Shown here: positions 1 to 30,603 of the stretch, in pieces
Layout of the letters: every line of letters begins with the position of its first letter
How positions within the stretch are numbered: position 1 is the stretch's first letter
Source of the DNA: Lophium mytilinum
Taxonomy: Eukaryota
Reading direction: 5' to 3'
DNA length: 32,265 nucleotides
Assembly (NCBI GenBank): GCA_010093605.1
Contig: MU004192.1
Coordinates: 1,521,112 to 1,553,376, forward strand
The notes under the pieces: generated by a model
What the model was told of the DNA's origin: nothing
The model's database searches: none
Seen by the model: the letters and a program-made list of their open reading frames with translations, nothing else
Translations under genes and position numbers: made by a program

Positions 1-18
1 ATAAGAATGTTAGAGAAT

Positions 19-275: not shown

Positions 276-289
276 GGTTATAAGCTTAG
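276..289 (+). promoter_or_regulatory. Primer-binding site, copia/Ty5 type (internal tRNA-iMet fragment)
   Basis: GGTTATAAGCTTAG directly after the LTR; C>T/G>A reversion gives GGTTATGAGCCCAG, resembling the half-tRNAiMet PBS of copia-type elements. Confidence 0.7.
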
Positions 290-951
290 ATTGCACTACG
301 TAATCTACAGCTATATAAAGCACTAACGGGCAGGTTCCATCTTAAAATCAACTAGATATTAATTAAAATCATTTAAATTAACTAAATATTGGACGAAAAC
401 GACGCCGTTTACTATCTTAATTACTATCTCCAGCATACAAACCTACTATACTACCCTACGAGTGGTTTCAAGCATAAAATAAAGCCGAAAACAAAGCCAA
501 AATTAAAGGAGACGAATTAATCGACTATAAACCCGCCATACAACAGCTAGAACGCGATCTGGAATTATAAATCTATCATAAATAAAATTAGACTAAAGAA
601 ATATTACCTATTTATTATATCTATTAACACGAAGCTTCTATAAGCTTATATTACATTATAAACTATATAATTAACCTTCCAACATCTATTATCTATTACG
701 TATTAAATCTAGATACTCTAGATTAGATTATAACTTTTTATCCTATTATCTCATCTAATACAAGAAGATAAATCAATTAGAATTTAAAATATTTCTCTTT
801 CTATCTACCTATCTATTCGCTAAATATATAGATAGCTAGAAATCTATCTATTTAAACAAAAATCTATAGATATATAGAAATCCATCTATTTATCTATTTA
901 TCTATCTATCTATTTGCCTAACGGGCTATCTATCTATCTATTTAATCTAAA

Positions 952-3900
952 ATGGATAAAATTAGTATTACTAAGCTAGTTAGTTAATCTAACTATAAAG
1001 TTTAGGCTCTAAGAGTACAATCTCTCTTAGTAGAAAAAAGTTATAGTAATGCTATTAGCAGTACTACTCCTATTCCGATTAATAAGGAAAACAATGCAAA
1101 AGTATTAGCTACTATTAGGCTTACTATAGAGGATGGTCCTCTATTATAATTATAGTATTCCGCTACTATAATAGAAGCTTAGAAGCTACTAAAGAAGCTA
1201 TATAGCCTAAAGGGCTTTAGTTCTAAATTCCTTATTTATAAGAAACTATTTAATACTATTTTATCCAAGTTTTTAACTATAGAAGATTACTTAAATAAGA
1301 TAAAATAGTTAATAGATTAATTAAAAGCGAAAAAGCTTAAATTACTAAACTAAGTTATTATAGCCTGGGTTTTAAATAACCTAATAGACCCCTATAATGG
1401 CTTTATAATAATAGTTACATAATTCTATAGGGAAAATTCATCTAATATTAAATTAGATAATTTATTCTCTAATTTAATAGATAAAGCAAGAAGACAAGAG
1501 TCTAAAGAGCACGAAACGGCTCTATTTAATAGAACTAAAAAGTTCTTGCCTAAAAATAAGAATAGAATAGAAAAACAATACTATAAGAAGTGTAAAACAG
1601 CTACGCACCTTATAAAAGATTGTTTCTATCTATTTCCTAAAAGGGCACTAAAATAGTTTAGAACTAAAGAATATTTTAAACCACTAAAAGAAAATAAGGA
1701 AGAATCCTTAATTATAGAGGAATCTAACCCTAGATAGGACAATTTTAATATAGAACTAGATGCAGCTAAAGTAAAGGTATTTCTAGCATCCTATTATACC
1801 CCTAATAATAAAGCTAATTATATATTAGACTCTAGGAGCACAAGCTATATAATAGTAGATAGAAAGCTATTTACTAGCTATAAAGAATAAGCTACTATAT
1901 TAAATTAGGCAGAAAATAAAACTATAACTATAAATAGTGTAGGAAATATACAATTAAAACTAAATAGAAATATATTTATACTAGAAAAGTGCCTTTTTAT
2001 ACCTAACTTTAGATATAATCTAATATCTATAAGTAAATTAGATTCTATAGGAATAAGCGTTATATTTAAGAATAAAATAGCTATTATATATAAAAATAAT
2101 AATATACTAGTAATAGCATTGCTTAAAAACTCTTTATACTATATAAATCTAGAAAATACAACACTTTTTATAAAGTAAATAGATAAAAAAATAAACTAAA
2201 TATATAAAGAGATAGATAAAAGCGATTTAATAAATATATATATAGATAGAAATAATCTATCTATTTAGCACTAAAGAATAGGCTATATAAGCTCTAGAAA
2301 GCTTAGTATACTATTAGGTATACTGCCTATAAAAGAACCTATATAATGTAAAGCCTATATAAAAGCTAAGATAACTAAAAATAAAAGAAGTAAGAAATTA
2401 ATAGTAAAAACTAAAATTCCTTTATAAAAAGTATCTTTAGATCTAGTAGGGCCTATAGATCTACCTACTTTAGGGGGTAATAAATACATTATCTTCTTTA
2501 TAGATATAGCTTTAAGATATATAGAATATAAACTATTAAAATCTAAAGATAAAGCTTATAACGCCTTTTTAGAATATAAAGCTAAGGCTAGAAATATAGA
2601 AGATAAAAGGAAGATACAAATCTTTAAAACTAATAATAGAGGAGAATATATAAATAAGAAGTTTAAAATAACTCTTTTAAAAACGGGTATAACCTATTAA
2701 TTCTTAAGCCCCTATACGCCGGAATAAAACGGCTTAATAGAATAAATTAATTTAACTATATTTAATATAGTAAGGGCTCTATTATATACAGCTAATTTAC
2801 CTTTTAATTTATAGGGAGAAGCTGTAAATGCGGCCGTATATATATATAATAGAACGCCGCATTCTAGCTTAATAGATAAAACGCTAATTAAGCTATATTA
2901 TAAAAGAAAAGCTAAAATAGATAATATAAAAATCTTTGGCTCTACAGCTTATTATAAGGTTAAAACGCAAATAACTAAATTAGAACTAAGAGCTAAAAAG
3001 GCTATAGTATTAGGCTATAGTTTAAATGCGTATAGACTATTAGATCTAGAAAGTAAAAAGATCTTTTAGGCAAGAGATGTATCTATAATAGAAGGCTTCC
3101 TTAATAAAAGGAATAAAAATAACGTTAATAAAAAGGGAAATCCTTTAAAATACGTTATTAATATAGAGCCACTAAAAGATAATACTAGAAGTAGTAATAC
3201 TATAAGTAATACTATAAGTAATAACACTATAAGTAGTAATAATTTAATAATAGATAAAAGCTCTAAAGATAAATTAGCTATAAAACTATCTAGAAATCTA
3301 TCTATTTAAAGATATACATAAAATCTAAATTTAATAAATAGATATATAGATAAAAATTAAGTATAATTATTAAATACATATATAGATAGAAACTAAACTT
3401 AATTATCTATAAATATATATATAGATAATCTATCTAAAGATAAATTAGCCTTTATTATTAATAATAATAATAAGCCAAATATATATAAACAAGCTATAGA
3501 ATCTTCTTATAATAATAAGTAGAAAGAAGCTATATAAATAGAATTAGACCAGCTTAATAAGTAAAATACCTGGGAGTTAGTAGACTTACTAGTAAATAGA
3601 AATGCGTTAAAAGGACGCTAGGTTTATAAAATTAAAACTAATATAGATAATAATATATCTAAATATAAAGCAAGATAGGTAGTAAAAGGTTTTAGCTAAG
3701 TCTATAGTGTAGATTATAAAGAAACCTTTACTAATACTTGCCGCCTAGAAGTATATAGGCTATTACTTATATTAGCTACTTATTATAACTAGGAAATAAT
3801 ATAATAGGACTTTAAAAACGCATTTATATATATAGACTTAAATAAAGAACTATATATAGAATAACTATATAGTTTTAATAGAAATAATAAAGTCTAGAAG

Positions 3901-5013
3901 CTAAATAAAGTATTATACGGCCTAAAATAGTCCCCTAGATAATAGTATATCTATTTAGCTATATATTTAGAAAAGTACAGGTTTAAAAGTACTATTACAG
4001 ACTAAGTAGTATTTAAAAATACGCAATTAAATATAATAATAGTCTGCTACGTAGATAATTTATTAGTATTTAGGCTAAATATAAAAGATATAGAAAATCT
4101 ATAATTAAAACTAAGTAAAGACTTAGAATTAATAAACTTAGGCCCTATATTCTATTTTCTAGGCATAGAAATAATATATAATAGAAAAGAAAGAACCTTA
4201 TTACTAAGCTAGAAAAAGTATATAAAAAGTCTATTAAAAAGATTTAATAAAGAGAAACTAAATCCCGTTTCTATACCAGGAGAAATAGGTATAAAACTAG
4301 AGAAAAACAATAAATAGGTATTAAAAGAAGATATAAAACTATACTAGTAATAAGTTAGAAGTCTTATTTATCTATTTATAAAGATAAGACTAGATATAGC
4401 CTATAGCGTAAATCTATGCGCTTGTTTTATATCTAATCCTAGTTCTATTTACTTTAAAGCCTTAGAAAGGATCTGGAAATACTTATTATATAAGCCTACG
4501 CACGGAATTAGTGTTAAATTTTCTCCTAGTGATCTAGCACCCTATTTATTAGGATATTCCGATGCAGATTATAGGGGTAATATAATAGGAAGAAAATTAA
4601 TAACTAGCTACTACTTCTCCTATAGAAAAACCCCTATTAGCTAGAATAGTAAACTATAGAAATCTATAGCACTATCTAGTTGCGAAGCTAAATATATAGC
4701 TTTAAAAGAAACTATAAAAGAATATAGATACTTAATAAGTATATTAATCTAACTTAATATTAGAAATATAGAAGAATTCTATCTATTTATTAATAGTTAA
4801 TTAGCTATAGAATTAGCTAATAATTCTAAATACTACTTAAAAACTAAATATATAGATATATAATATTATTTTATAAAAGAAAACGTTTAAAATGGATTAA
4901 TAAAGCTAGCCTACCTTAATACTAAGGAGTAAATAGCTAATATATTCACTAAACTATTAGTAGAAAGTAGTTTTACTAAAATAGTAGACTATATAAGATT
5001 AGATACTAAATAG
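952..5013 (+). pseudogene. gag-pol polyprotein relic (1353 codons, many RIP stops)
   Basis: ATG 952, the RT motif and the terminal TAG 5011-5013 share one frame. Motifs: zinc knuckle (C>Y)KKCKTATHLIKDC ~1582-1623; protease YILDS ~1819; integrase DLVGP ~2440 and TPE*NG ~2716; RT KYKAR*VVKGFS* 3661 and YVD(D>N)L 4048; RNase H GYSDADY ~4552 and IA(D>N)IFTK ~4933. Confidence 0.92.
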
Positions 5014-5066
5014 ATATATAGATATATAGATATAACTCTATTATATAAATAGATAAATATATAGAT

Positions 5067-5103
5067 TCTATCTATCTATCTATCTATCTATATAAAGAAG
5101 AAA

Positions 5104-5171
<68 letters not shown>

Positions 5172-5180
5172 CTCTATCTA
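5067..5180 (+). repeat. (TCTA)n microsatellite in the element 3' UTR
   Basis: Long TCTA runs; the same tract appears as (GATA)n at 30604..30698 in the inverted copy. Confidence 0.9.
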
Positions 5181-5217
5181 TTTAAAAAAGAATATATAAA
5201 ATAAGCATATAACGCTT

Positions 5218-5226
5218 AAGGGAGTG
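5218..5226 (+). promoter_or_regulatory. Polypurine tract
   Basis: AAGGGAGTG immediately before the 3' LTR; same in the second copy (CACTCCCTT from 30559). Confidence 0.75.
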
Positions 5227-5483
5227 TATAAGGATTATAATAGCATAAGCGTTATATCCTTACGCATAATAGGCTTAAAAGCCTTTAAACAGGACGAAAC
5301 TGTAAGCGTTTAAACGTAATATAATAAACGTTGGATAATATTATAAGAACGTTAGAGAAACGTTTTATAATGCATTAAATGCTGTATATATACTCTGTTG
5401 CTGTTAATATAGAATAGAACTTAAGTAATATAATTCCTATCTATCTATCTATCTATTCTCCCATCGACTCTATACCTTTAATA
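5227..5483 (+). repeat. 3' LTR of copia element
   Basis: 257-bp direct repeat of 19..275; differences are mostly C>T/G>A. Confidence 0.95.
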
Positions 5484-5488
5484 AGAAT

Positions 5489-5617
5489 TATTTTATAATA
5501 TATTAAATGCTATATATATACAGCTCTATTGCTATAAATAAAATAAAACTTAAAGTAATATAATTTTTATCTATCTATCTATCTATCTATTCTTATATTA
5601 ACTCTATACCTTAGATA
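5489..5617 (+). repeat. 3' half of an older LTR of the same family that was the insertion target (its 5' part is at 1..18)
   Basis: Joining 1..18 (ATAAGAATGTTAGAGAAT) to 5489.. (TATTTTATAATATATTAAATGC...CTATACCTTAGATA) reconstitutes the LTR sequence; it is more mutated than the inserted element's LTRs. Confidence 0.85.
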
Positions 5618-6133
5618 TAATATAGTTAGCCTTCTATAGCTATAGATAGTCTTTAATATCCTAAAATCTAATACATTATATAGTAAGCTAATAAGCTATA
5701 GAAAATTTGCTCTAGAATCTTAGTCCTTATATTAAATAGTTTTATAAATTTAGGTAAGTAATAATACTTTATATTAGAGATATAGAGAGAAGTACTACAA
5801 GTAAGATTACTAGGCTATTATCTATCTATATAAAACTTTGTAAGTATGTTTTAATCGCATAATGTTAGTAGTGAGATAAGCTATAAGGAGTGCAGCAAAG
5901 CCTTTAAAAAGCTGTTATCCCAGGGACCAGCAGTATTGGCGGAACACTAAAGAGTATTAACATGCTACTGGTTTATAAGCCTTGCGTCATAAAGTCGCTT
6001 TAGACTATAGTTCATTGCAGCAACTTATTGCATTGTACGATGTCAACACTCTAAGCTTCCACAGGGAGAAAGATAACCCATATTGTGCTATTAATGATCC
6101 AGTATACGCTTGTTTACAAGCCCCGTGTCTCGA

Positions 6134-7049
6134 CTACCAGGGGGCATCAGCTAAAGTAGCAATGTGATGCGTCTGGGGATTATGCTTGGCCCAATTCAAG
6201 ATATCCGCGGCCGCCTCCTTCGTCGCATCGCCGCTCACGTAGTGATTATGTTTGCGTCCATAGATCATTCCATCAACACCGGCTTCCGCAAACAGCTTAT
6301 CCACGTACCAAGCATGGCCTTGGAGACTCGTCCACCCGAAGACTCTGCCAAACTCATTCGTCTCGTGTCCCTTCCTTAGTTCGGTGCACGTTTTGTATCC
6401 CTTCTCGTGACAGTTCCCGAAACCGGCGGACAAGGCATAGTAACCGTAAGACATAATGAGTTTCGGGCGGTCAACATTGGACGCTACTTTATTGAAAGCA
6501 TCCAGGCATTCTTGCGCCTCGCCGTTCATATTGATTGCTTCGAAGCTCTTCAGAGTCGGTGCGGTGGACGCCAACGCCTTCTCCTTTCCGTTGTAAAATC
6601 CATATAGCACTTTGACGCCAACGGGCTCTAGGTGCTTCGCTGCTAGGTCGCGGAGTGCTTGACAGTGCACTGTGTCCATTTGGGTCCATATTCGGAGAAC
6701 ACCAATCCGGGCTCTTCAGATCAAGCCAGACAAAGGTGACGGTCCTTCCTTGAGAACGCGCCTCGGCAATGGTTTTGAACATAAGCTCTGCCGTGTCGCC
6801 TCTGGCGGCTGCGTCTTCGTCATGTTGCGCGTTCCAACCGTGTTTGTTGGGCATCATGTCGATTTCAAGTGCGTTTGCGCCGTTGTTCAAGGCATCCCAG
6901 ACGCCAGTGGTCATCAGCACTCAATGGGCGATCGCATACACAGGCCGGGTTGCGTGTTGTTCTTCTTGCGGAGTGCTGAGCACCTGTTGTGTTCCGAGTG
7001 CGCTACCCAGCAGCAGAGACACAGAGAGAAGAGCGAGAGTTAGCTGCAT
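6134..7049 (-). pseudogene. Secreted sphingomyelinase D / phospholipase D (SicTox/Corynebacterium-type GDPD-like) pseudogene
   Basis: ATG 7049 with signal peptide MQLTLALLSVSLLLGSALG. Motifs PVYAIAH*VL, GANALEIDM, AQHD, VWLDLK and C-terminal plug ATLADAPW. In-frame TGA at 6921-6923 and a net frameshift at ~6655-6700 joining ORFs 6489..6920 and 6134..6679. Confidence 0.9.
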
Positions 7050-7579
7050 ATTCGCAGTTAATTGGAGTAGATTGAAGTGTAGTGTGAGCTGTGAGCTTAA
7101 TGTAACATCGAGCTAAGTTGGCAATTGCAGCCGCATTTTATAGGTCTTCCAAAGTTCGGTAAGCCCAGGTGCTCCCAGTACGGAGTCCAATTGTTGGCCA
7201 AGCCCTTAAAGTTGATCTCATGCCGAAGTTTTGCTCATGCAGCATTCGCAAAGGTCTTATTAGTCAGTTAAAAGTCCCGGGAGACCATTTACGTCCTGTA
7301 TGCTGAAAGACGTACCTTTTCGGCGCGAATGCCGCGTTCGCCGTATAACAGGGTTCGTTTATGATCACTAGAGAATAGAAAATGGGCAGAGAGTGCTTCG
7401 ATAGACTGGCCTCGGGGCAAAAGTAAGGCCAAATAGTGAAAGTTGCGCCTTGGCCGTGATTGTGGCGCTGTTGGACTAGGTGACTTGCTGGAAACGCAGC
7501 TGAGCTGTGACACAAATTGGGATGGTTGTATTGATATAAATTCACGACGCGGAAGGAAGGCCAAGAAGGGGAAGAACTT

Positions 7580-7811
7580 GATGTGAGACTGGCTGGATAT
7601 TGACGAAACAAGAAATTGTGGCGTTTAGTTTGTTGTCCAGAACACTCGCTTCGACGCGAGTGGAGACGAAAATGCCCGCCATACTTTTTGAGGTGAGCTG
7701 GAGTTTGATCTTAGACCAAGAGGGATGTGAGGCTGAATAGATAGTGACGAAACGGGAAAACTGTGCGTTTGATTGGTGTCCAGAACACTCGCTTTAGCGC
7801 TAGTAGAGAGA
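7580..7811. repeat. Imperfect ~90-bp direct repeat (7580..7667 and 7725..7811) in the divergent PLD/PI-PLC intergenic region
   Basis: Shared GATGTGAG, TGACGAAAC, GCGTTT and an identical TGTCCAGAACACTCGCTT (7634..7651, 7777..7794). Confidence 0.8.
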
Positions 7812-8152
7812 GCCGGGAAGGAAATGCACGGCGGAAACGACCTGGTTATCCACGTGGGACGTGCAGAATTAGTGGTTTATGCATCCATCATACTGCTCAA
7901 ACACTGTGATAGGGCCTGCATGCAGCAATAGATTATGTGACTGTTTTTAGATGGCCTGATGGTTTTCGGTGAGGCCGCAGGCTTGGAGGACTGTTCAACT
8001 GCCGTCTCGCAAAATGTTCCGCGACTGAAAATAAACAGTCCCTTTAAATAGGTAAGAATGTGCATCTTCGAAAGTGCGGTTATCCCTCAAGCTTCTCGCA
8101 CTCAACTTAGACGGTCTTCGCGTCGCTTTCTTACTAGCAATACATTTCAAGT

Positions 8153-9529
8153 ATGCCGTCAATTCCAAGTCTTCCGAACGACATACATACCAGACTGTAC
8201 GATGAAGGATCGTACCGGCTCAGTGCACTCGTCGCCGGAGCACACGTTGAGAGTCAATGTCTAGGCCATTCCACATTGGTGTGGTATGTCGACAAGCAAC
8301 CGTCACCAGAGGCTTCAGAAGAGAAGCGCCAAGTACGAACCGAAATGAAGTCCTACAGCACATTTCCGAAGACTTTCCACTACGAATGCAAGATTGTTTC
8401 TGGAGGCACTATCAAATTCGATGGAAAACGAGAGTAAGGTGTGCTTAGAGATAGTGAATGCAACTGCTGACCGTTCAAGCCCTAGTTATATGTCAGTGTC
8501 AATGGGGACCAAGTACAACGGCAATCTTCTGGAGATGCCAGCGCACCCAAGGTATGTCCGACTGAAAGAAACGATGTTGAATAGCGCTTACGTTCACTGA
8601 ACAACAGCACTTTAGTGAAAAGTAGCGTACAAAACCTTGATCCAGCTGATTGGATGCGCGTCATCCGACAGCAGCACCCTGGAACCCACAAGCTCTCCAG
8701 TCTCACGATACCCGGCACCCATAACAGTTTTGCGAGGGTTGGATATGTCGAAGCCTCCCCTATATTTCCAGATTTTGTGCGCGAATTCGCCGAGTGCCAG
8801 ACATATGGAATCAGGGAACAGCTACTCATGGGTGTACGCTTCATTGACCTTCGAACATCAGGTACTGATCTGCGTCTACGTCACGGCCGTATTGGGCTTA
8901 AGGGACATCTTCGAGAGGCTCTTGACGCTATTGCAGAATTTCTACAGCAGCATTCTCACGAAACTGTGTTGGTCCAGGCGAAACGAGACATGGAGTCTTT
9001 AACGGGAGATCGTCAGGGCGAAACCCCGGAAACCAGACGGGCGGTTGAAGACGCTTTCAGTAGCTACCCATGTAGCTATGTGGAAACGAGGGAGCCTTCT
9101 CTTGACGAATGCCGCGGAAAGATGGTTCTTTTGTCTACCGATCACGCGACGAAAGGCATAAACCTGTCTCCAATCCGTGATGGATCGCCGAATATCAATT
9201 GGGACTATGAAGACGTGGAGCAACATTGGAAAGACGTCGCGCGACGCTTGGAATGGAACGTTAACAACTCCTCTACCGATGATGGGTTTTGGTATCATTG
9301 TGGCTGCAATAGTTACTGGTTTCCTCCGGGAAATGTCCTCTCGAATGTGGTAGCGATCGAAAAGCACGGCTACCGGACTCCAAGGGACCATTCCAACCAT
9401 CTCAATTGGCGCATGAGTGAGCTCATCAAGAATCAGTACTGGGACAAGCCGAATCGGCTTGGGCTTGTGCAGCTGGACTTTGCGTATCCCACCCTCGTGA
9501 AGCAGTTGCTTTTGACGAATTTCAAGTAG
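8153..9529 (+). CDS. PI-PLC X-domain (bacterial-type phosphatidylinositol phospholipase C-like) protein, 3 exons
   Basis: Exons 8153..8433, 8486(or 8480)..8551 and 8608..9529. Introns GTAAGG..GCTGAC..TAG and GTATGT..CAG keep the frame. Motifs WM, LSSLTIPGTHNS, CQ..I.EQL..GVRFIDLR, RHG, L.ECRGKMVL and C-terminal LGLVQLDF; both catalytic His present. Confidence 0.9.
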
Positions 9530-9841
9530 TTGTACTTTAGAACTTTAGTGAGTAGAGCGCTCGTGACGTGGGGCGTACCTACATTATCCGAGTGGAATAT
9601 AACAGCATGTTTGCTTCATGCCTATATGCTCTCTGTGAGTACACAGTGATTACGTCTTCGTTAATGCGTTCCGTATAAACCTCACTATGATGTATGAACT
9701 TCATTTGAACTAATAGCCATTGGTTGGACTTCCAATTATCAACTCCGCGACTGTTACAAAAAGAAAATAATGCCGCAAAGGCTCATGCAAATGCTAGAAC
9801 GCGAAAGGGTTGCAAAAGGAAAGCGAAGCGGCTCCACACAG

Positions 9842-12800
9842 TCATACCAACGGCCCACGACAAGAATGGTTCTTGTGACAATGAACAGATTCCCACAGTA
9901 AAGACGGAAGGCCTTTGGGTAGAGTATCAGAGGCTTTCAGTGATGGACACTCCCAGTACAACTGGTCATCAGTCAGATAGAGAGTACGCTTGGATAGTAT
10001 GCGCTCTTGTTGCGACCAAGCTCGAGTATCCCACGAGGCGTCCGGAGTCAAGTGGATCGTGGGATCGTTGTTGTCGTCACTGGGTTGTCGTCCAGCACCA
10101 TTCTCTGGACTGTTGCTGCCATAGCTAGCGGCGATGGTGACTATCGCATTGCGGTAAAGGTTCGTCATTTTGGTACATTCTTCGCGGCGATCGCTCGGAG
10201 AGTCTTGAAGCACGCAAAGCGCATCCACCCATAGATAACGGAGGCCCAACTTCCTCGTAACTGATATGGCATCTGCCACTGGCTTCGAAAGGGAGTCAAT
10301 CGAGATGGAATCGAATAACGCGGCAGTGTTGTGCGAGGTGAGAAGGAGCTCGTCAGCAGCACTCCAAATGTAGCTCAGAGCTGCGTAAGCAGTGCTTGAC
10401 GGAAGGACGCTTGAAGCGACAACATGAATGGCAGTATCGTTAGACCCCGTGGAGTCGATGTCGAGAAGTCGGACTGGAAGCGTTGAAGTATGTTGTCCTT
10501 CGGGCATTGCGTGCTGACAGGAATGATGATGAGCAGCACAAGTCTGCAGCCAGTCTGAGACGTTGTGGAATCGAACTTCGTGCTCGGCAGAGCCTAGTGC
10601 ACTGACAGCAATGGGACTTTCATTAGTTGTGCAGTCAAGCAGGACCGCACAAGCCTTTGCCTCGTCCAGTGGTCCCGGAAAGGTGCGTGTTGTGTTTGGC
10701 CACGCGAGGCAACAGGATCCGGGGGTAAAGATTGAGGCAAGTGAGATTGCATCAGGGCGACTTTCTGGTAATGCATCCAGCATGGCCTTCACAGTCTCAA
10801 GCACGAGAAGCTCTTGGTGAGCTGGGTTCGTCTCTCGAAGTCGATCAAGCCACCAATGAACACGAGGAACGTCCTTGTAATAGAACTTGCCCCCCGTGAA
10901 TTCCTTCTGGAAGCCGTGATGGAGTTCGTCCTTATTCTCGCGGACTACTAGAGCCATCTCGAGAAACACACAGCCAAGCGACCATATGTCAGCCTCTGGT
11001 CCTCTTGAAGTATGATTTGCAACTTCGGGGGCGCAGTAGCGGGGTGTCATTCGACCAAAGTCTTGCTCCACAAGAAGGTCATCTGATGCTCGAGAGATCC
11101 CAAAATCGCTCAGGATGACATGTGGAAAATCGTTCTTGCCCTGAACTATTAGTATATTTTGCGGTTTGATGTCAGTATGCATCACAAGAGGCCGCTGCTC
11201 GTGTAGATATCGAACGGAAGAGGTCAGACATCCAAACATCTGGAGGACATTTTCTTTTCCGCCCACGGGAGCTTTGCCGGCGTAGTTTTCCAACCAGACA
11301 GACAATGTCATATCAGCGACTGGGGAAAGTAGAATCGATAGTCTGTCGCTTTGCGTGTACGACTCTAGGAGTCGGATGATGTGAGGATGTCGAAGTTGCT
11401 GAAGAATATCGACTTCTTGCGTGATATCAGTCGGTAATAGCTTCCTCGGTGGTCTGACGGTTTTCCGACAGAGCCGAAGTCCTGTCTCGCGGTGCAGTAC
11501 CTCCTCAACAGTGGAGAATCCGCCCATACCGAGGAATTTGATACTGAGAAACGACTGCGATGTAGGCGATGGATACCCTAGTATAGGATTTGTAATCTGC
11601 AATGACTCGGGTAGTAGTATTGTTGGAGTCAGAGTCTGTTCCGTATGAGAAGCTTCCCGGGATGCAATTGCAATCCTTGGGGTCAGCAAAATGCGATCTT
11701 CTCTTTCTAGTCGGATTACAGACCCGGCGGGGAGTCCAGAATGTTGACCGTGACCGTCCTTTAAACAAATACTCGGGCTGCTTCGTTGAGCGGACGCCTT
11801 CACGACGTAGCCGCACAAATCCAGCTCAGAGAGCACTGATCCTCTGCCATAGCAGGAAACGAAATCACTCCTAGACTTCAGATCGGGAGAAGTAAGCTCA
11901 ATGGTGCCGTTGAGTTCAACACCTACAGAACAAACCTCAGGCCGAATTGAAGCACCGTGCGGAGGCGTATGGCGATTGATATCGGGTTCGTCCACGCTGG
12001 ACGATGCTTTCATAGAATAGACGGGGTTTGGGCCGGGAGGATGTGTCGATATCGTTGACTCCTGGGAAGCATTTTGCCCTGTACTAGAAGAGAGCACGGG
12101 TTGACTGCCAGTGTCGACGCAATTGCTGCTCGCGCATCTACTAGATGCTCCGGAATTCAGTGATCTATGACTGCCTCCACTACCATCACCGTTCCCATCA
12201 GTGCCCGGACCTCCTTTGTCCCCATTAAAATGATTCCGCTTGCCTCCTATTTCTCTTCGAGCACTGCGTGTGGAAGTGTTGTCTTCGAAGTCGTCGTCTT
12301 TGGAGGTATCATCTCCTGGGGCGTCATCATCATCAGAATCGTCGCCGGAACTACTTTCACCCTCCTGGACACCGTCGTCCCATTCGAGCATGCACTTCCC
12401 CTGTTTGAAATGCTCGGCGATGTGGTCTATCCTTTCTTGGCGTGAAGAGAACACATGCGGGCAGAAACCACATTGCCTAGGAAAAGCCGTCTCCGCCTCT
12501 ACCAGGCTGTCTGCCTCATAGTCGGCGGCAGAAAATGTTGGATGGATGTTGTTGAAGTGCTGGGTGAAATGATAGCGACGGTAACATGGTTTGGCCCGTT
12601 CCAACCCTAGAGTCTGGCAGAGACTGCACAGCCAATGCCTCGAGGGGTAACCCTCTTGCTCATTGCGTTTCCAGTCGCATTTGCGGACATACCGTTTGCC
12701 ACATTTTCGAGTGCATTGATATATCCGGCTTTCGTCTCTGCATAGTAGATCTGGACTTGAAGTGGGGGTGCAACTCTTCTTGCCGAATCTCTTGCCACTC

Positions 12801-13894
12801 TTACGGGTGAGATCCTTGGTGCAATCAACCTCCTCAGTGGTTGTGGGGTCCATCAAATTCCGATCAAGTCCGTCATCGAGATCGTGAGGCCTTTCGTCCG
12901 ACCGCGTGGTACCTTCTCCGTTCGTTTGGGACATATAAGCCGAATCGTTCTCGGAATGAAGGCCCCGAGCAAGAAAATCTCCGAACCAGTTTCTTATTGC
13001 GCTGGCCGGCATCCTAGTCAAATGACTTAGAGCTGCGATGTCCTTGTCACTAGGGAATACAGAGTATCTCTTGCTGAACCACGTCGAGCAAACGTCTGCT
13101 GCATCTTCACTTAGTGCCGAGTCGGATTGACTTAGTTGATAATGGGATTTCCCTGAAATAGGCGTTCTCCCTTCGATCAGAGTTGTGTCGGAAGAGGCAA
13201 ACGTGAGAGATTCTGGGGACAGATGACTAGTTCCTTGAGTTTCTGATACCATTTGACGTTTTGGATACGGGAAGTCTGAGAAGTCTGCCTGGAACGGTCG
13301 CTTTCCGACAGCGCCTTGCTGAGTATCGCAGAACTCGAATGAATTTGACAAGGTGGCAGTCAGGTCAATGGGGCTTACTTCCGGCACCGCCTGCGCCGCC
13401 CAAGTTTTGGATGTATTAGGGAGGGCCTAGTATGGTCAGCACCAAGGTTTATTGAGTGGAGGAAATTGAATTGACTTGTCCTCTAGCAGGGACCGACCGT
13501 AATTCGCATAATAACGTTGAGTACTGCGACATGACTATCTATTTTCAAAAAGTCTTACCGATGTTGTGTTCAGATCATGTTGATGCTTGGAGGGCACACG
13601 AAAAGCATTTTGCGTAGTGGAACGCGTTAAATCAATTCCCTCGATTGCCTGCTGGAAGCCGGGAGCTCTCCCTGAGTTGAAGTCGAATGCAGATAGAGAC
13701 GTATCCACAGCGGATGGCATCGTCATGTCGCTATCCATGAAGTCTGGCGCAAAAGAGGCTGGGAAGTCGGAGTTCCACAAAGAACCATACTCTAATTGGC
13801 TGTCGAATGGTTGCAGATCAACATTGCTGTCCATTGCGTCCAGGCCGACAGAAGAGTAATCGAGGATGTCATGGAATGAAGTCTGAGAATCCAT
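9842..13894 (-). CDS. ~1306 aa multidomain protein: degenerate homeodomain + C2H2 zinc fingers + Ser/Thr kinase + HET domain
   Basis: Exon 1 13894..13559 (MDSQTSF...), intron 13558..13427 (GTAAGA..GCTGAC..TAG, phase 0), exon 2 13426..9842. Homeodomain-like TWF....FPS..DIAALSHLTRMPASAIRNWF. Fingers YQCTRKC, WLCSLC..HFTQHFNNIH and CGFC..RIDHIAEHF. Kinase GMGGFSTV, LCRK, HTDIKPQN, DFG, APE, DIWSLGC. HET LPVRLLD, YAALSYIW, LGLRYLWVDALCVLQD, M..LY.NA..TIAA, RAWSQQER.LS.R. Confidence 0.88.
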
Positions 13895-14688
13895 GCTTGC
13901 GACCCGAGTATCGCGAAATGGAGGTGTATAGCTGTTTCCCTCGCAGTGAATTTGGAGAAAGGGAAACAATAATGTGAGGTCTGCAAGTTATGAGTCAACT
14001 TTGAGCCTTGAAACGGAGGCCAACTAAGGCGTTGATCGCTTGGCAGATGCTGCGCCCTCGTCAGAGCCGTTGAGCGCCCTTTTTCCAAAGCCCTTCGCTG
14101 GTGTTGCAGACGAGAGGTCAGCCCTAGGCAGCAACATTCGCGCCAAAAGGGCGGAGTCCAATCCAATCCCGATCGATGATCGTCGTGCAGGGGCCCACAA
14201 GGTTGCATCGCCTTTCATCTTTCGCACAGCCACATCAGCATTTGAATTCCTGCATGAGATTATTACCAGTCGCCAACTTCAAACCTGGGAAGACTCCGTT
14301 CCTTTGCACTATCTTACTGGCCCTTATCTAATTTCTACCGTCCGGTTCTATCGAACACCATGTCAATAATTAGAAGGTCTACGTAGGTCCATACACAGTA
14401 AAACATTTTCTAAGATGCCAATTTAAGTACGCCTTCATTTCGCTTGAAGTACTACCGCACCCTTGTGTAGCGTCTTTCGCCGTATCACATCGATTATGCT
14501 AGCTGGGCATGTTTAGATGCATCTGTTCAAGACCCTTCAATTAGGATGTCATCTAGGAGACTACAAAGGTAATATGATCTTATACCCTTGCTTCTCCGGT
14601 AGAAGCACGCAAGTGATCATTATTCCGCTGGATTTCAAGTCCTTTCAAGCTAGCACACCACAGATTCGAAGAACGTGGAAAGATACCT

Positions 14689-16129
14689 TTAGAGTCTCGA
14701 CTGGCTCACTCCTGGCCAGACTTGTGCCACGAACTCTTCAGTATCCTGCAGCAATAAGCTAGGTTGCTCCAGAGCAGCAAAATGCCCACCCTGTTTAGAT
14801 AATCAGCAGAGCCTCGCAATTAGAACAGGCGGACATACCTTGCTGTGTTCTCGGTGAAATACTAGATTGCCTGCAGTTGCAGCCCAAGCTTTTGGTACGG
14901 GTGATAGTTCAAACGGGAAGTACGAAAACCCAAATGGCTTGTCTGTGGGATCGGGTTGTTTCTGCCCGCTGACGAGGCCTCGATAGGGATATATCGAGCG
15001 AGGAAAGGCGTCCGTGAACCAGTACAGAGACACCGACTCCAGAATCGTATCAAGGGTCGGATCTTCCTCAGTCCAATCCAAGAACTTCTCTCCAATCCTA
15101 TGTCGTTCGTTAACTTTTAATCGGTTTGCAAAAGAGGGAAGTTGACCGCGCCCACAGGGAAATCGAGCTTACCATGCTAGGAGTGCCAGAGGGTTTGATG
15201 ATAGGACGTGTCCAATGGTGCTGGGCCTTGTCCCGTGTTCTTGAGCATATGCAAATCCACGCTGTCGGAAAGCCTGGGTCCTTTGCAGCCCCTTACGTTC
15301 CACGTCGCTCACTTCAGCATTTTCCGGTGGATCTGTTATTATCATCATGTTTACTGATGCTGTTAGTTGCAACGAACGAGTCCAATGTTCTTACAAAATG
15401 ACGTACAATGTTTAGCCTTGCATTCGTTGTACTGCGAGAGCAATTCGGATGCAATGAAGCTTCCAACATCTCCCCCCTGAGCAACATATCCATTGCCGAA
15501 CCCAAGCTCAATCATCAAGTTGTTGATGATGAATGCAGCATCAGGTGTGGTGAAATCCTTGTCTAGTGGTGGGCCTGCAGATAAAGTATAGCCAGGAAGC
15601 GATGGAACAATCACATGATAGGGAAGTTCTTCTGGTGAATATTTGTTCTTAAGCAGAGACAACATCGGAAGGAACTCCAGGAAGCTCCCTTGTGGTGAGT
15701 AAGGTGTCAGCACGAGAAAGCAGATGAATGCTTGAATCACATACCTGGCCAGCCATGGAGGAAAACAACCGGGATGGCATCTTTCTTTTCGGAGAAGAGG
15801 GCAGCGAAATGAATGGCTGATTCATCACCATCTTTGTCTTTGACTCCCAGTTTGAAGTTCGGGAAGGAGTTGATATGTTTCTCATGAGCCCTCCAATCAA
15901 AAGACTCAAGCCAGTAGTCTTTGGCATTGGAAAGCCATGCTCGAGTTATCCCGAGGAGGCTGATACCATCTGGGCGATCGCCTTGCTTCCCTTCCCAGGT
16001 CACGGGGCCCAGTCTTGATAGCTGGAGTAGAGTTTTGAACTCTTTCAGATCGTCTTCTGGAACAGCAAGGGTATATGGTTGAGGGTGTCCCTTGGCGGAG
16101 CTCGGGATTTTGGTGTATGGTCCAGACAT
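14689..16129 (-). CDS. Epoxide hydrolase (microsomal/EHN-type alpha/beta hydrolase), 5 exons
   Basis: Exons 16129..15745, 15688..15407, 15353..15173, 15097..14839 and 14790..14689, all GT-AG and in frame. Motifs FDWR, HGWPGSFLEF, PSLPGY, AQGGDVG (nucleophile), HLNM, WIGEKF, GGHFAALE. Ends in SRL. Confidence 0.95.
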
Positions 16130-16815
16130 GATGGCTGTGGTTTGTGCTGGTGAATTGGCAATGACCCTATCTATGTATCGGTTCAACGTCATTTATGCCT
16201 CGGGATTAGCGTAATATGGAGTCATAGTCATGGGGACCGAGACCCCGAACTATTTGGGAATACCGAGACACCGTCTGAGATCATTCCAAGAGAGACCGAC
16301 TGTGCGACATCACAAGCGGAGAAAGCGGGGTGCCTAACGTTGTCAGTATTATCTATGTCAGCTTCTTCACTTCAAGATGGATCTCCTAGAAGACTCCCTC
16401 GTTCAGCAGTGAGATGAGTTTGTACGCATTATCGACATGAAAGTACATATATGTACTATTTCGTCCTTTGAGAGTGTTATATTTTAACTGATTCGATGGC
16501 TTTGAAGCAATACTGGCGGTCTCGGGTGACCGGAACTACTACCTTGAAAAGGCCCCCAGTATCGTTGCTCGGTAGGAGCACTCAGGCCGGGCCGATGTCG
16601 TGTGCGTAGCAATAATTGATGCGAGCGAGAAGAGAAGGGGAAGGGTACCTAGCACGCCTGGCAATCCGCAAGCATCCGAAGTGGTAGTAGTGGGGCACCC
16701 GAATCTCTGGGCAGCTAAGGCCTGAAAGCCCCTCGACCAATCGGACTTTCCCACATCCAAGCTTTCCCACACCAAACCACCAGGCCACCAGCACCATCTC
16801 GCTAGGAAGCACAAT

Positions 16816-17383
16816 ATGGTGAGCATGGTTTTATTTCCCACAAATGAAGTCTCGACTAACTCTATGATAGGCTCCTTCGCAAGCCAGCCGTAAGCGCGAG
16901 GGCGCGAAGCCCCGCAAGACCTCCCGGCCTCGACCAGTCTTCGAATCACCGGACACAGTTTTTCCCTCGTCCAAGAAGGACAAACGCACGATCAAGCACT
17001 CTGTATTTGTAAACAAAATCACCAAGACGCACAACAAGCCATTGAAACGGCGGAGGCCGAACAAGAAGCTCGTGGCCAATCTTGAGTCTCTTGCGGAAGC
17101 TTTACCAGATCTTGCTGAAGATGAAGATGGGGGGTCCACCACAATTGGAATGGCTAAAATACGACACAAGAGTCTGAAAAGTCGGCCAGGTGCCATGAAG
17201 CGCAAGGAGAAGATTGAGCAGCTAGAGCGGGAGAGGTTTGGGAAGAACCTGGCGCAGATGATGGGAAGCACACCAAGCCAGCAGGACAACGCAAAACCCG
17301 CTACAATCGCAGATCGCTGGTCGGCTTTGAAGTCGTTTGTCCAGAGCACGACAGAAGTGAAGCCAGAATTCGGAAAAACTTGA
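16816..17383 (+). CDS. SLX9: Ribosome biogenesis protein SLX9/FAM207A-like
   Basis: ATG-only first exon (16816..16818), intron GTGAGC..CTAAC..TAG 16819..16870, exon 2 16871..17383. Basic protein with SKKDKRTIKHS.FV, RRRPNKKLVANLESLAEALP, KSLKSRPGAMKRKEK..E.ERF..NL, RWSAL. Confidence 0.8.
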
Positions 17384-19014
17384 ATGGACTCGGGGCATAG
17401 TTAAGATTGCATCTACGAGAACTGTGGCCTGGCGTATGTTTCCGATACCCACTTAGAGGAGCTGAGTGTGAGACGGATCGGGTTTCTTGAAAAAAGAAAC
17501 GGGATAGTGGCAATGTTGCTGACTAGGCGACATACACTTTGATTACAACCTGGGCATCTAAGCCATAGTCCATACAGAGAAGATACCGGGCGTAGAAGAC
17601 AGACCCTCGGTGAAGCTGGCAAGACAGTTAGGAGGACGAGTTAAGCCAGAATTGAATAACAAAACAACATTTGCAATAACGCGCATCCGCGCGGAAAGCT
17701 ATACTCTTCCTCGGCAGAATTTGTTTAGAATGCTCGATTAGACATAGTGCGCCTTTATTTATAAAAAAGCCCACTGTAAAGACCTAACGTGTTATGCAGA
17801 TCTATTAAGCAGATATTTGTGACGAGCTTAATTACCACCCCTCTTTTCTCTGCCTATCTATCCTAAGCCTCCTCGCCTGCTAATGTGTCCACCACCTGCA
17901 GGTTCGCTCTTTAACACAAAAAGTACCTAGATATCCACCTCTTAAGCAGTCTGCCGTGCCAGGCCCTTTGTAATGAGCTATTGTCCTTCCCTCAAGTAGA
18001 ATCAAGTCCTCCTCTGTAGATATATAGCGGTTAGAGGGGTACTATTAAATATAGTGCAAGATATAAAGTGTAGTTTAATATAAATATTACGTTGAAGTCT
18101 AGTAAGTAATACACCTTCCTGTCAGTAAAGCAAAGTTGCTCCCAGCTGGGGGCTAAGGTTGAACTTAGTTGGGGGAAACAATAGGATGGGAAGAGAAATA
18201 GGGGGCAGTACTAGTAAACCTCCTAATTAGTAGCGTTATACCTATTTAATCTAATCTTCTCGTTAGCGTAGAGGTGTGCTCTAAAGTCTCTAATTTACTT
18301 GCTTAATTTATATATAAATTCTAAATACTTTCTCTAACTAAAGTAGGAATATAAAGAGTTAAAGTCTAATTCTATCTATATCTATAATATACTATAGCCC
18401 TCTAGCTACTATAGCTACTATAATATTAGAAAAGAAGTATATTTTACTCTATAATAGAGTACTATAGGCCTATAGTAAAGAGAGTAAAAGGTATAAAGCT
18501 TATTATACTTAGTAGATAGAGAGTAATAAAGAAATACTAAGCTTTATATAGGAAGCTCTAGTAAAATAAAATTATAGTAGTCTAATATACTTATTAATAG
18601 ATAGACTAATAGGTAGAGAAATAGAGAAATAGTAAAAAGGGGTAAGTATTTCTATGCCCCCCTATTATAGTTATATACCCTCTAGCTTTAGTAGATGCAC
18701 ACCCCTCTTATTTAATCTTTTAATTAGCTAGAAAGTAATCTTTTAATTAGCTAGAAAAGCTCGGACTTTTATTAAGAGCTCTAGAAGCCGGCTACCTAGC
18801 TTAAAAGGAGGGTATTATAGAAGAAGGTAGTATATTAATACTATAGAGAGTAGTATAGCGGCAGGATAGCCCCTATATTAAGTATTAGCCTTATTCTTAG
18901 CCTTAGGTAACGCTAGTATAGCTTCCTTATAAGGAGCTACAACTTTAGATATAAGAGTAGGAAGAGGAGGAGTTATAGATAAGAATAGCTAGGGCGGTAT
19001 AGCAGTATTATAGG

Positions 19015-19278
19015 TGTAAGTTTTATAATAGTATAAGCGTTATATCCTTTTATATAATAGGCCTAGAAGCCTTTAAATAGAATAAAACTGTAAGAGTTTA
19101 AACATATTATAATAAGCGTTAGATAATATTAAAAGAATATTAAAGAAGCGTTTTATAATATATTAAATAATATATATATATATAACTCTATTACTATTAG
19201 TATAGAATAGAACTTAAGTAATATAATTTCTATCTATCTATCTATCTATCTATTCTTACAATAAATCTATACTTAATA
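19015..19278 (+). mobile_element. Solo/remnant LTR of the copia family
   Basis: TGTAAGTTTTATAATAGTATAAGCGTTATATCC...(TCTA)n...CTATACTTAATA aligns with 19..275; flanks ATAGG/GTTGG give no clean TSD. Confidence 0.88.
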
Positions 19279-19586
19279 GTTGGGGGCTAGCTCTAATATA
19301 AAGAGGCTGTAATAAGGTAAGATCTTACTTATTTTAGTATACTTATAGGCATGTAGATATATAGGTAGCAATATAATGGCCTATATATACTATAGGAAAT
19401 TGAAAGTATCTATAGTAGAATAGGTATGCTGTATAGCCTTACTATAAGTACAGCCTTGCGTACGGCCTTACGCATAATCTTACATGCAGCGCGCGGTTGT
19501 ATATAGCCTACTGTAAATAGTAAGAATGTATAATGAAATAGTAAGACTATATAGCTTGCCTATTCTAAGCTTTAGAGTAGTAACCC

Positions 19587-19847
19587 TATTAAAGGTATAG
19601 AGTTAATTAAAAAATAGATAGATAGATAGATAGATAGGAATTATATTACTTAAGCTCTATTCTATATTAACAGCAATAGAGGATATATACACTATTTAAG
19701 GCATTATAAGACGCTTTCCTAACGTTCTTGTAATATTATCTAATATTTATTATATCATGTTTAAACAATTACAGTTTTACCCTACTTTAAGGCTTTTAAG
19801 CCTATTATATGTAAGGATATAACGCTTATGCTATTATAAATCTTATA
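19587..19847 (-). mobile_element. Solo LTR of the copia family
   Basis: Reverse-complement match to the LTR; flanked by AACCC / AATCC (TSD with one C>T). Confidence 0.92.
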
Positions 19848-19881
19848 AATCCAAGCCCTCTAGGCCAATTAGAAGATAAGA

Positions 19882-20055
19882 TGTAAGGAAGGGGTGTAAA
19901 ACTATAACAGGGGGGCGTAGAAGTACTTGTGCCCTAGAGAAATAGAGAAATAGATAAAGAGAAAAGTAATAGAATAGATAGATATATAGATACATAGTTA
20001 TATAGACATATAAATAAATAGATAGATAGATTTAAAGATAGATAGAAAGATAGAT

Positions 20056-20110
<55 letters not shown>

Positions 20111-20155
20111 AGGAAGGAAGTAGAAAACTTCTTTAATAGTATACATGTCCTTACA
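19882..20155. mobile_element. Putative LTR of a second family, with internal (GATA)n
   Basis: 274 bp bounded by the 8-bp inverted termini TGTAAGGA...TCCTTACA; internal sequence differs from the main LTR; no TSD visible. Confidence 0.5.
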
Positions 20156-20886
20156 CTAGTTCTAGACTAACTGTAGTATCTAGCAACCTACCTACTTCTA
20201 ATTTAATTCTAGTAGTTAGGCTCGCTAATCTAGCTAATAGCTTAAATTAATAGTATAGTTTGTTTATACTAACGCTAACTAGTATTATAGTAGAGAGAGA
20301 TAGAGATAGTAGGAGGATATACTTAGGTTAAATAGTAGTAATAGATAGAGGTGTAGATATAATATAGAGAGGCTATAATAGTAATACTTTAATAATTTAG
20401 TTATACTTCTAGATATATAGCAGATACTATTACAGTAATATATAACTGCAGAAATAGAAAGAATATATAATGAAATAGAGGGGCTATAGAGCCTTATATA
20501 TAGTGTAAATGCACGTAAGAACAACGCTTTAGACAAAGTAAGCCTTTCTACCTGAATTGGAATTTTAGACGGGATGGGCTGTGTACAATTACTAGAAAGG
20601 GGGTATATGAATATCAACACACTATTACATCTTCCTTTTTCAGGATCACGGTCACCAGAGAGGAGAAGGTTCGGAGTTGATAAGCCTGGAATAGGAGATC
20701 TAGAAGTTGAGGCCGTAGGCCCATTGTGCTGCCTATCAGGCTGCTTGGGAAAGAAGAGTAAGAGATGACACATAAAGGGAAGGACCGCCGCAATCAATTA
20801 AGAAGGGGCTCAGTAGCCTATTCCATGCGATTGACCCAATAGCACCGGGTCTACCTCACTCACCACACAAGTAGTTGATCTGAAAA

Positions 20887-22599: not shown

Positions 22600-23829
22600 C
22601 TAGGCCCTGAGAAACTTGACAACTGCGTCTCTGCCTTGGGATTTAGAGGTTGCTTCAGTGTGAAGAGCGCCCTGAACATCATGCCTTGTAAGGTTGAATT
22701 TTAGTTGCCGACATAGACGTTGGAGGTCGTCTGCCTGGTCAGAAGGAACAATCTCGTCTCGACCAGCCGTGATAAGCAATATTGGCATACTTGCACCCGC
22801 AGGAGTTATAGCTATGGCCCGCAGTGCCTCTTCATTGTCCCACCAGTTCCATAGGAAGGGTGAGAGGTAGCGGTATGGCAGCCACTTCTGAGGGTACAGA
22901 CTTACTAGCATGCGTTTGATGCTAACAAAGGGTGTCTCCAATATGATGCCGTGAAGCTGGAGGTTCCTTGACTCATTAGATTGGAGCAGACGAGAAGCAG
23001 CTCCAGCTGCAACCGACGCCCCGATACTCTGGCCCCAGAGGACTAATTTTGGGCGACTTCTCGTGGAATGATCCTCGAACCGGGTTTGGGCCCAGGCTAT
23101 GGCTGCGTCAGCATCCATCTCAATCCCTCTTTGAGATGCTCTGCCTTGAGAAGTCCAGAAACCCCTGTAGGACACAGCGACGAGCGTGTACTGGTTGCCG
23201 GGATTGAGAGAGTTCAACACTTTAGAAAGCGTCGGCAATCGAGGCGGAAGGGAAGAGGCGTTCCTGTGTGTCGTGAGCGGACTGAATCCTCTTATTTGAT
23301 TTTCTGCATCCGGCCTGACCTACCCTTGAAAGTAGAGTACGACAACGTGGCTGGAGCTCGGTCCTGCAGAAGTACCATGAGTTTCGTCTTGTAGCTGGCC
23401 TATACACAGGGAAATTCGAGTCCCGTCTATCGAGGTGATCCGTTGTTCCTCCCAATGAACCGAACCACACGTGCGGGTATAATCTGCGATCTTCTCCCGT
23501 CGGGAATAGGGTGGTACGGACGGCATATAAATGATTTTGTTCTGAAAGAGGATCATCATGCAGCATTTGTAGAACCACAGTGTTAAAGCAAGGCCGACAA
23601 AGACCACCGGAGGCGTGATGACTGGTATTATCGCAATGCTAGAGAAGTGCCGTTTGTATGCCTCAATTGCAGGAGCGCATGGGCATACGACGCGTCCGCG
23701 TGAACGGTGATGGTCGAGAGGCAGCAAGTTGGAGGGAACAACGCATGTCAGTCGGCATTTTCGGAGGCTGTGCAGGGTCTGGCGCATATATATACGAGAG
23801 GAAATGGGAGTGTAGACCTTGGAGAGCAT
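22600..23829 (-). CDS. BEM46/ABHD13-like alpha/beta hydrolase, 2 exons
   Basis: Intron 23323..23264 joins LYFQG|NASS. Motifs FQNKIIY, SYRGFW.S.G, LWGQSIG, LETPF.S, G.DEIVP, GALH, plus a TM segment. Start uncertain (23865, 23829 or 23787). Confidence 0.9.
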
Positions 23830-30558: not shown

Positions 30559-30603
30559 CACTCCCTTAAGCGTTATATGCTTATTTTATATATTCTTTTT
30601 TAA

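Follow-up and report, generated by a model that had tools for sequence, protein, structure and literature searches.

One spliced gene for a four-part protein

The stretch of DNA analysed here (the window, 32,265 nucleotides, nt) belongs to contig MU004192.1 of Lophium mytilinum (assembly GCA_010093605.1, positions 1,521,112-1,553,376), and on its minus strand it carries a gene whose product joins an N-terminal module with a homeodomain-like part and C2H2-type fingers to a protein kinase and, at the C-terminal end, to a HET domain. The coding sequence runs from an ATG at 13894 to a stop codon at 9842-9844, the same bounds that had been proposed in an earlier reading made from the letters of this DNA (the sequence-only reading). 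That reading took it for one uninterrupted frame, which it is not, since a phase-0 intron of 132 nt (13427..13558), which opens with GTAAGA, has CTGAC as its branch site and closes with TAG, separates exon 1 (13559..13894, residues 1-112) from exon 2 (9842..13426, residues 113-1306 and the stop codon), the latter having no further joint inside. In the list of open reading frames the two minus-strand stop-to-stop frames concerned, 9842..13426 and 13535..13987, share one phase, and the three in-frame stops between them all fall within the intron. The spliced product of 1306 amino acids (aa) was found by a word-indexed search to be 100% identical, over its full length, to the Lophium mytilinum hypothetical protein BU16DRAFT_513599 (P0001), which begins with the translation of exon 1 and whose letters are continuous across the exon junction.

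A single contig of 4293 letters, assembled in run X1, lies on 9693..13425 and 13558..14117 and skips 132 bases at a joint whose ends are CT..AC on the plus strand, that is GT..AG on the minus strand; the same 132-base joint is present in run X2, which comes from a relative. The intron-free form argues for an RNA origin of the X1 contig, and as the coding regions of all four domains lie on this one contig, which ends in the flanks, it argues for a single gene. The probable mRNA would thus occupy 9693..14117 (-), with untranslated regions of about 223 nt at the 5′ end and about 149 nt at the 3′ end, assembled contigs giving no information on transcript ends or on the level of expression. The homeodomain, finger, kinase and HET architecture is therefore that of one real, expressed gene, and the single transcript presupposed by the sequence-only reading finds its counterpart in one spliced contig that spans all the parts. 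It is scarcely credible that a neighbouring transcription-factor-like gene and a kinase-HET gene have been misread as one, even if the long linker is poorly conserved and module-only records exist, such as P0297 of Exserohilum turcica (459 aa, on a 4-Mb contig), because the frame is open from the intron through to the stop, all the parts are on one spliced contig, and the same collinear architecture recurs in 113 of the 117 matches of the ortholog search described below. In the Exserohilum record (SETTUDRAFT_29926) the module is annotated separately as a C2H2-type protein, and either the gene model or the orthogroup gene of that species itself may be split.

The module, the kinase and the HET domain

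The residue counts that follow come from an alignment of 112 orthologous rows, the region identities and the counts of homeodomain residues being taken from the 96 rows with a complete N-terminus. The module begins with a homeodomain-like three-helix domain (12953..13123, minus strand, as are all the parts of the gene; residues 214-270), in the place where the sequence-only reading had put it. In the recognition-helix motif WFxNxR, whose positions we take to be Trp48, Phe49, Asn51 and Arg53, the 96 full rows all keep the first two residues; at position 51 they have Arg, Gln, Leu, Asp, Glu or Lys, at position 53 Leu, Met, Val, Ile or Cys, so that neither Asn51 nor Arg53 is present in any of the 96, and the letters NWFGDFL had been correctly read in P0001. 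This part of the protein is net acidic, with a median net charge of -3, and that of the finger region is +7.

Three fingers follow. The first (12647..12721, residues 348-372) is degenerate: it has an invariant Cys350 and Cys354, with Asn and Gly at the places of the His ligands, within the stretch DWKRNEQEGY already recognised as lacking them. Finger 2 (12542..12634, residues 377-407) has Cys379, Cys382, His398, His402 and His407 with a long spacer of 15 residues, and keeps Cys379 and its three His in 111 of the 112 rows and Cys382 in 110; finger 3 (12410..12478) is a canonical C-x2-C-x12-H-x3-H with Cys431, Cys434, His447 and His451, its ligands kept in 111-112 of 112 rows. Of the C2H2-type fingers of the sequence-only reading, finger 3 thus has the full ligand set and finger 2 comes near it, and the finger region has the homology described below; in Pfam no zf-C2H2 row was obtained for P0001 at E<=1. 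Upstream of the homeodomain-like part, a conserved basic motif GKRP...PKR (13256..13306, residues 153-169; family consensus LGKRPLQLD..DFPQ.KR), which has the majority residue in about 60-80% of the family rows, is possibly a bipartite nuclear localisation signal.

The homeodomain is not reached by the usual profile, as Homeobox_KN scores 16.1 bits on P0001, below the Pfam gathering cut-off of 24, and the four other orthologs scanned (P0007, P0029, P0049 and P0083) gave no homeobox row. An AlphaFold2 model of the module, with a 13-row alignment of the family as input, shows three helices (model residues 8-20, 28-38 and 42-54) with predicted local distance difference test scores (pLDDT) of 90-97; the fingers score 63-92 (finger 3: 88-92) and the spacer less than 50, and within finger 1 the score is below 50 up to model residue 153 (residue 364 of P0001) and then about 63 up to residue 372. 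When this model was compared with the PDB by Foldseek, every listed match was a homeodomain, mostly of the TALE class, with target template-modelling (TM) scores of 0.09-0.87, the best short alignments reaching 0.68-0.87; the best match was TGIF1 (6fqp_B; probability 1.00, root-mean-square deviation 1.9 over 53 columns, E=0.03), and none came at E<=0.001, since the module query is long and partly disordered. The tenth match, the homeodomain-only protein HOP (2hi3), has the three-helix fold in common with the module and no sequence relationship to it beyond the fold; it is a free-standing small protein, and its homeodomain fold is not known to bind DNA. On the model we are confident that the module has a three-helix homeodomain fold, as the sequence-only reading had supposed.

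As regards its descent, a profile search of the PDB sequences gave 12 rows at E up to 10, all weak, of which 6 are homeodomains and 4 are C2H2 fingers (best rows: Gfi-1, E=0.053; TGIF1, E=0.17). A clearer relationship is that with P0117 of Fusarium, a genuine homeobox-C2H2 protein (Homeobox_KN of Pfam, E=5.6e-14), to which the module aligns by BLASTP in collinear order over the fingers (E=2e-12) and the homeodomain (E=0.01), its finger 3 falling on the last finger of P0117. In the ESM Atlas the top cluster (score 0.95) is without a common family, and the two nearest Pfam-annotated clusters (scores 0.93 and 0.92, Ascomycota) have Homeobox_KN on 94-97% of their members. Judged by this homology, the module is descended from the fungal C2H2-homeobox transcription-factor family. 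The known members (VdChtf1-7 of Verticillium dahliae, PsHOX5-9 of Phoma sorghina, MGG_01730) have the same order, with a TALE-like homeodomain and then three fingers, and the same ending, CGFC...DHIAEHF..G..M..W; the Lophium module differs from them in being without Asn51, Arg53 and the His ligands of finger 1, and in its homeobox score below the cut-off. As described in the papers on them, these factors form a subfamily with members that control conidiation, microsclerotia and virulence, and none carries a fusion to a kinase or a HET domain, as the Lophium protein does (PMC11423567, PMC11121360).

Between the module and the kinase there is a variable, acidic, Gly/Ser-rich linker (11558..12355, residues 470-735), the length of which goes from 141 to 775 aa over all 112 rows, truncated gene models included. 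Ankyrin repeats match within it in P0029 of Lentithecium fluviatile (residues 613-689), and a P-loop fragment, NPHP3_N, in P0049 of Neocucurbitaria cava (residues 591-639); both may be lineage-specific insertions or gene-model artefacts.

The kinase domain (10727..11551, residues 738-1012) scores 127.4 bits with Pkinase (E=8.4e-37, cut-off 31.7, residues 741-938 in Pfam), and 111-112 of 112 rows have the G-loop, Lys767, Glu783, Asp864, Asn869, DFG and APE, and 111 have His862. The place before the catalytic Asp864, taken by Thr in Lophium (His862-Thr-Asp864), has Met in 89 rows, Leu in 17, Thr and Gly in 2 each, other residues in the remaining 2 and Arg in none, so that the kinase is of the non-RD type, complete and non-RD as the sequence-only reading had stated. 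Non-RD kinases are linked to innate immunity. The closest solved domains by PDB sequence are those of DAPK2 (E=1.8e-21) and then DAPK1, CASK and Snf1, a generic relationship; with the death-associated and other CaMK-group kinases the Lophium type has all the catalytic motifs in common, and it differs from them in its non-RD signature (H-M/L/T-D), in having no calmodulin-binding or death domain, and in its flanking domains. From its motifs we take it to be an active-looking, CAMK-like Ser/Thr kinase.

The bridge that leads from the kinase to the HET domain (10718-10588, residues 1016-1059) has a strongly conserved Cys-rich motif, FTPAPCCL.WPN...FPGP.EEL. The HET domain, with an N-terminal W..C...H..C lead, occupies 9878..10567 (residues 1066-1295), and its Pfam core, residues 1126-1257 (bases 9992-10387), matches PF06985 with E=4.1e-21 and 76.3 bits (cut-off 22.5). 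Three blocks, Y.ALS..W, Y.W.D.LC..Q and WDTRAW.LQERLLS, are conserved, in agreement with the intact C-terminal HET domain of the sequence-only reading, and with its lead the domain measures about 230 aa. According to the literature, HET measures about 220-240 aa, is enough by itself to cause cell death (PMC12881547, PMC10197012, PMC4986451) and is TIR-like, by a remote link to TIR (PMC4986451); HET domains are able to kill cells and have been proposed as immune parts, their biochemical role is given as still unknown, and most of the members are described as belonging to fast-evolving families of paralogs (PMC12881547, PMC10197012). The Lophium domain resembles those of HET-E/D/R, TOL, PIN-C and HET-6 in its PF06985 score above the cut-off, its three blocks and its length, and differs in being C-terminal and not on a nucleotide-binding, leucine-rich-repeat-like receptor (NLR), and in belonging to a single-copy gene, conserved and nearly monomorphic.

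A structural model of the HET domain (pLDDT 69.6; predicted TM score 0.71) was compared by VIA-align, in which the highest Z values, 5.1-5.5, belong to nucleoside deoxyribosyltransferases and are below the confidence level of the tool, and 15 of 50 rows are TIR, SEFIR or ThsB chains with Z of 3.6-4.7, values that may mean only a common arrangement. This result of modelling agrees with the remote relationship of HET to TIR in the literature, of which it would be no independent proof. Beyond residue 1295 of P0001, a short motif, LRNCQWIKKEGDGIGDSMEAAQT, is common to the C-terminal tails of many Pleosporales; tails that hold LRNCQWIKKEGDGIGDSMEAAQT reach 360 aa and are otherwise variable, and in Lophium, Mytilinidion and the group P0003-P0006 the protein ends 17-22 aa after the HET domain, without LRNCQWIKKEGDGIGDSMEAAQT.

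The orthogroup and its wider family

With the first 420 residues of exon 2 as the query, 117 proteins were matched, 113 of them with both Pkinase and HET, in more than 100 named Dothideomycetes of the Pleosporales, the Mytilinidiales and their relatives, among which are Mytilinidion (81% identity), many Pleosporales, Zopfia, Delitschia and Lojkania. Each genome has about one of them, the species listed twice being different strains or gene models. A shared-word search of proteins shorter than 718 aa returned 32 matches, mostly fragments or split models of the orthogroup, and no named Lophium paralog, which in this kind of search does not imply absence. The module is found in 96 of 96 rows with a complete N-terminus; the other 16 of the 112 are cut at the N-terminus and without the homeodomain-like part, and have the appearance of truncated models, 9 of them starting with an internal Met immediately downstream of that part. 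The mean pairwise identity is 0.78 in the fingers, 0.73 in the homeodomain-like part, 0.64 in the kinase, 0.53 in HET, 0.46 in the kinase-HET bridge and 0.31 in the linker, and by this measure the transcription-factor-like module is the most conserved part of the protein.

Variation within species was compared among the members of 90%-identity clusters. In P. nodorum the 154 contigs are represented by 8 distinct proteins that share 99.0% identity or more; 18 of 1357 columns vary, only 1 of them in HET; the haplotypes of P. teres are at least 98.5% identical, and across several species of Alternaria the minimum pairwise identity is 96.4%. Nor did the 117 matches of the ortholog search contain a second, divergent allele class for P. 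nodorum or P. teres. By these comparisons the gene is one of deep conservation, and not of the fast evolution of an immune decoy.

Outside the orthogroup, a profile of the module was run over 1.84 billion representative proteins and matched 1496 of them at E<=1e-3, 371 at E<=1e-10 and 62 at E<=1e-30. Of the best 150 of the 1496 matches, 131 were new, and a Pfam scan of these gave Pkinase in 30, of which 7 also have HET (2 of these being cut members of the orthogroup), 1 has ankyrin repeats and 2 have DUF7896; a genuine homeobox domain was found in 5 of the 131, zf-C2H2 in 3, a weak lectin match in 1, and nothing at the thresholds used in 92. The named relatives belong to Coniosporium, Eremomyces, Lophiotrema, Glutinoglossum (Geoglossomycetes) and Bacidia (Lecanoromycetes); that of Lophiotrema is a distant paralog which exists alongside the ortholog, and P0249 of Coniosporium apollinis unites module, kinase and HET. 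Some arrangements are peculiar: in P0246, from a Logan contig, HET (414-520) comes ahead of the kinase (534-732), after the module, and the lichen fungus Bacidia gigantensis has two module-plus-kinase paralogs, P0181 and P0226 (KY384_004040 and KY384_004046), six locus tags apart on one contig, one of which carries DUF7896 after the kinase.

The losses of canonical residues are graded across these relatives. Genuine factors keep H-x3-H in finger 1 (P0247, P0216) or have H-x4-H in it (P0117), and P0247 keeps WF.N.RR, the homeodomains of P0216 and P0117 not aligning to the module profile; in a large non-canonical family, free-standing as well as kinase-fused, Asn51 and the second His are lost and finger 1 reads DWKRHEE.NYP; and in the orthogroup the first His of finger 1 is lost as well. 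By this gradation the degeneracy is old, shared and fixed, and is not a decay still under way.

The kinases were placed in a tree of 38 domains, from which rows with fewer than 220 kinase profile positions were omitted, as were P0122, P0204, P0217 and P0250 for being truncated or near-duplicate, and in which five of the rows included have long branches. The orthogroup kinases form one clade (support of 99 in the Shimodaira-Hasegawa-like approximate likelihood ratio test), and HET-bearing relatives lie both beside this clade and far away from it; the distribution of HET requires 4 changes, and a count as low came from 80 of 500 shuffles. By sequence, then, the gene is to be assigned to a wider module-plus-kinase lineage of the Pezizomycotina, in which HET would be on some members only, and this lineage is apparently undescribed. 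In several classes of Pezizomycotina the homeodomain/C2H2 module has in this way found a second use, as N-terminal partner to kinases of a related lineage.

Proposed function and genomic surroundings

The reading that we prefer, and to which we give an even chance of being right, is that of a conserved signalling kinase with a repurposed transcription-factor module and a TIR-like HET output. The module would be the targeting or sensing part, it would bind a partner protein or a nucleic acid, probably in the nucleus, and it would control the kinase; the activity of the kinase, or its oligomerisation, would in turn gate the HET domain, which would be the output, whether it works as a homotypic adaptor or as an effector that brings about cell death or consumes nicotinamide adenine dinucleotide (NAD). 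HET-domain genes are abundant in fungi, and the Lophium type differs from the rest in being single-copy and deeply conserved, with HET permanently coupled to a kinase that looks active and to a DNA-binding module put to new use, in many Pleosporales that are genetically tractable. A single-copy, conserved HET gene in such fungi means that the function of HET could be directly tested, as regards control by the kinase, the consumption of NAD and cell death. A description of the four-part architecture was not found in the searchable literature, and the sequence-only reading knew of no characterised protein that has it, with the limit that supplements were not opened and that a kinome or HET census table could list the gene.

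Several points weigh against this proposal, or at least against some of its parts. With respect to the transcript, the type of run X1 was guessed as RNA. As for the module, ordinary DNA binding may still take place by way of the basic finger region and the two intact fingers. In the HET domain, 82 of the 112 rows have Glu at the position aligned with the Glu of block 3, 24 have Asp and 4 have Asn, Foldseek gave no clear match for the HET model (best E=0.22, at probability 0.15), and the TIR-likeness of the Lophium domain is thus only weakly seen in the model. In the wider family, many of the relatives without HET come from short contigs and are possibly truncated, P0122 being without HET, yet P0249 of the same 90%-identity cluster has it; truncated models therefore blur the picture, and the kinase tree does not separate the gain of HET from its loss. 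Lastly, a literature search with six locus tags found no paper.

An alternative, rather unlikely in our opinion, is that the protein is a working nuclear regulator of transcription or chromatin, in which fingers 2 and 3 bind DNA, the kinase phosphorylates proteins of chromatin or transcription, and HET is only an interaction domain; a developmental role, like that of the known C2H2-homeobox factors, is the form of it that these relatives suggest, and it is just as doubtful. A canonical finger 3 and a near-canonical finger 2, in 110-112 of 112 rows, the basic finger region, and the homology of the module to factors that govern conidiation, microsclerotia and virulence, according to the papers on them (PMC11423567, PMC11121360), speak for such a regulator, and the strong purifying selection together with the low polymorphism would fit one at the core of the cell. 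However, the homeodomain-like part is acidic and without Asn51 and Arg53, finger 1 has lost its His ligands, and the conservation of all three HET blocks would be hard to explain in a passive tail.

A wider form of the signalling proposal, which we hold to be improbable, is that the orthogroup and its module-kinase relatives make up a new class of fungal proteins for innate immunity or the signalling of cell death. The transcription-factor-derived module would here sense a foreign molecule or nucleic acid, be it the effector of an antagonist aimed at C2H2-homeobox factors or a viral RNA, and would switch on the non-RD kinase, which would then fire HET as a TIR-like executioner. If true, this would be a fungal counterpart of the logic of PKR or of IRAK-TIR, and would offer the first conserved and genetically tractable entry point to the function of HET domains.

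About as improbable is the integrated-decoy or bait receptor suggested by the sequence-only reading, in which the module would mimic genuine C2H2-homeobox factors and its binding or modification by the effector of an antagonist would lead the non-RD kinase and HET to trigger defence or death. In plant NLRs with integrated decoys, and in the kinase-fusion resistance proteins of cereals, a transcription-factor-like or bait domain is joined to a signalling or death part. The idea takes its force from a module that is folded though its canonical DNA-reading residues are lost, from a kinase that is non-RD in 112 of 112 rows, from HET domains that, according to their literature, are able to kill cells and are proposed as immune parts, and from free-standing relatives of the module that exist and could be the guarded targets. 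Nevertheless, the Lophium protein differs from the plant receptors in that neither NACHT nor NB-ARC gave a Pfam row for P0001 at E<=1, and in that its architecture is invariant, with no family expansion and with about one copy per genome in more than 100 taxa. A bait that is the most constrained part of its protein would need explaining; the degenerate residues are fixed in the family, and some are common to free-standing and HET-less relatives; the variation within species is very low (at most 1.5%); the pairing of module and kinase is wider than the fusion to HET, the same module occurring on related kinases without it; and the neighbouring genes are ordinary metabolic genes. Of the original suggestion, then, a sensing role for the module is possible, and the decoy fits poorly with a deep orthogroup, a module that is its most conserved part and low polymorphism.

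It is very improbable, finally, that this is a gene of heterokaryon incompatibility (allorecognition) like other HET-domain loci, for although the HET domain is above the Pfam cut-off and many characterised het genes encode HET, the orthology is one-to-one across orders and the haplotypes compared, those of 90%-identity clusters, are the nearly identical ones of P. nodorum and P. teres given above.

We return from these alternatives to the signalling kinase with its repurposed module and to the place of its gene in the window. AT-rich blocks (22-37% GC) at 1-6000, 18000-20500 and 30000-32265, which resemble the isochores of the repeat-induced point mutation (RIP) type in Dothideomycete genomes, separate gene islands of about 50% GC, and the gene studied is in the island at 6000-18000. 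There, a gene for a phosphatidylinositol-specific phospholipase C (PI-PLC) X-domain protein (8654-9529, plus strand, E=5.8e-08) converges on it, the two being covered by separate X1 contigs, one of which ends at 9534 and the other begins at 9693, and on the other side there is the N-terminus of an epoxide hydrolase (15737-16192, minus strand). Farther along are an alpha/beta hydrolase (22600-23118, minus strand), a Fringe-like protein (27636-28916, minus strand) and, between them, at 23924-26548 on the plus strand, open reading frames with phosphoribosyl-AMP cyclohydrolase (PRA-CH) and histidinol dehydrogenase (E=1.1e-132), which look like the exons of a HIS4-type gene of histidine biosynthesis.

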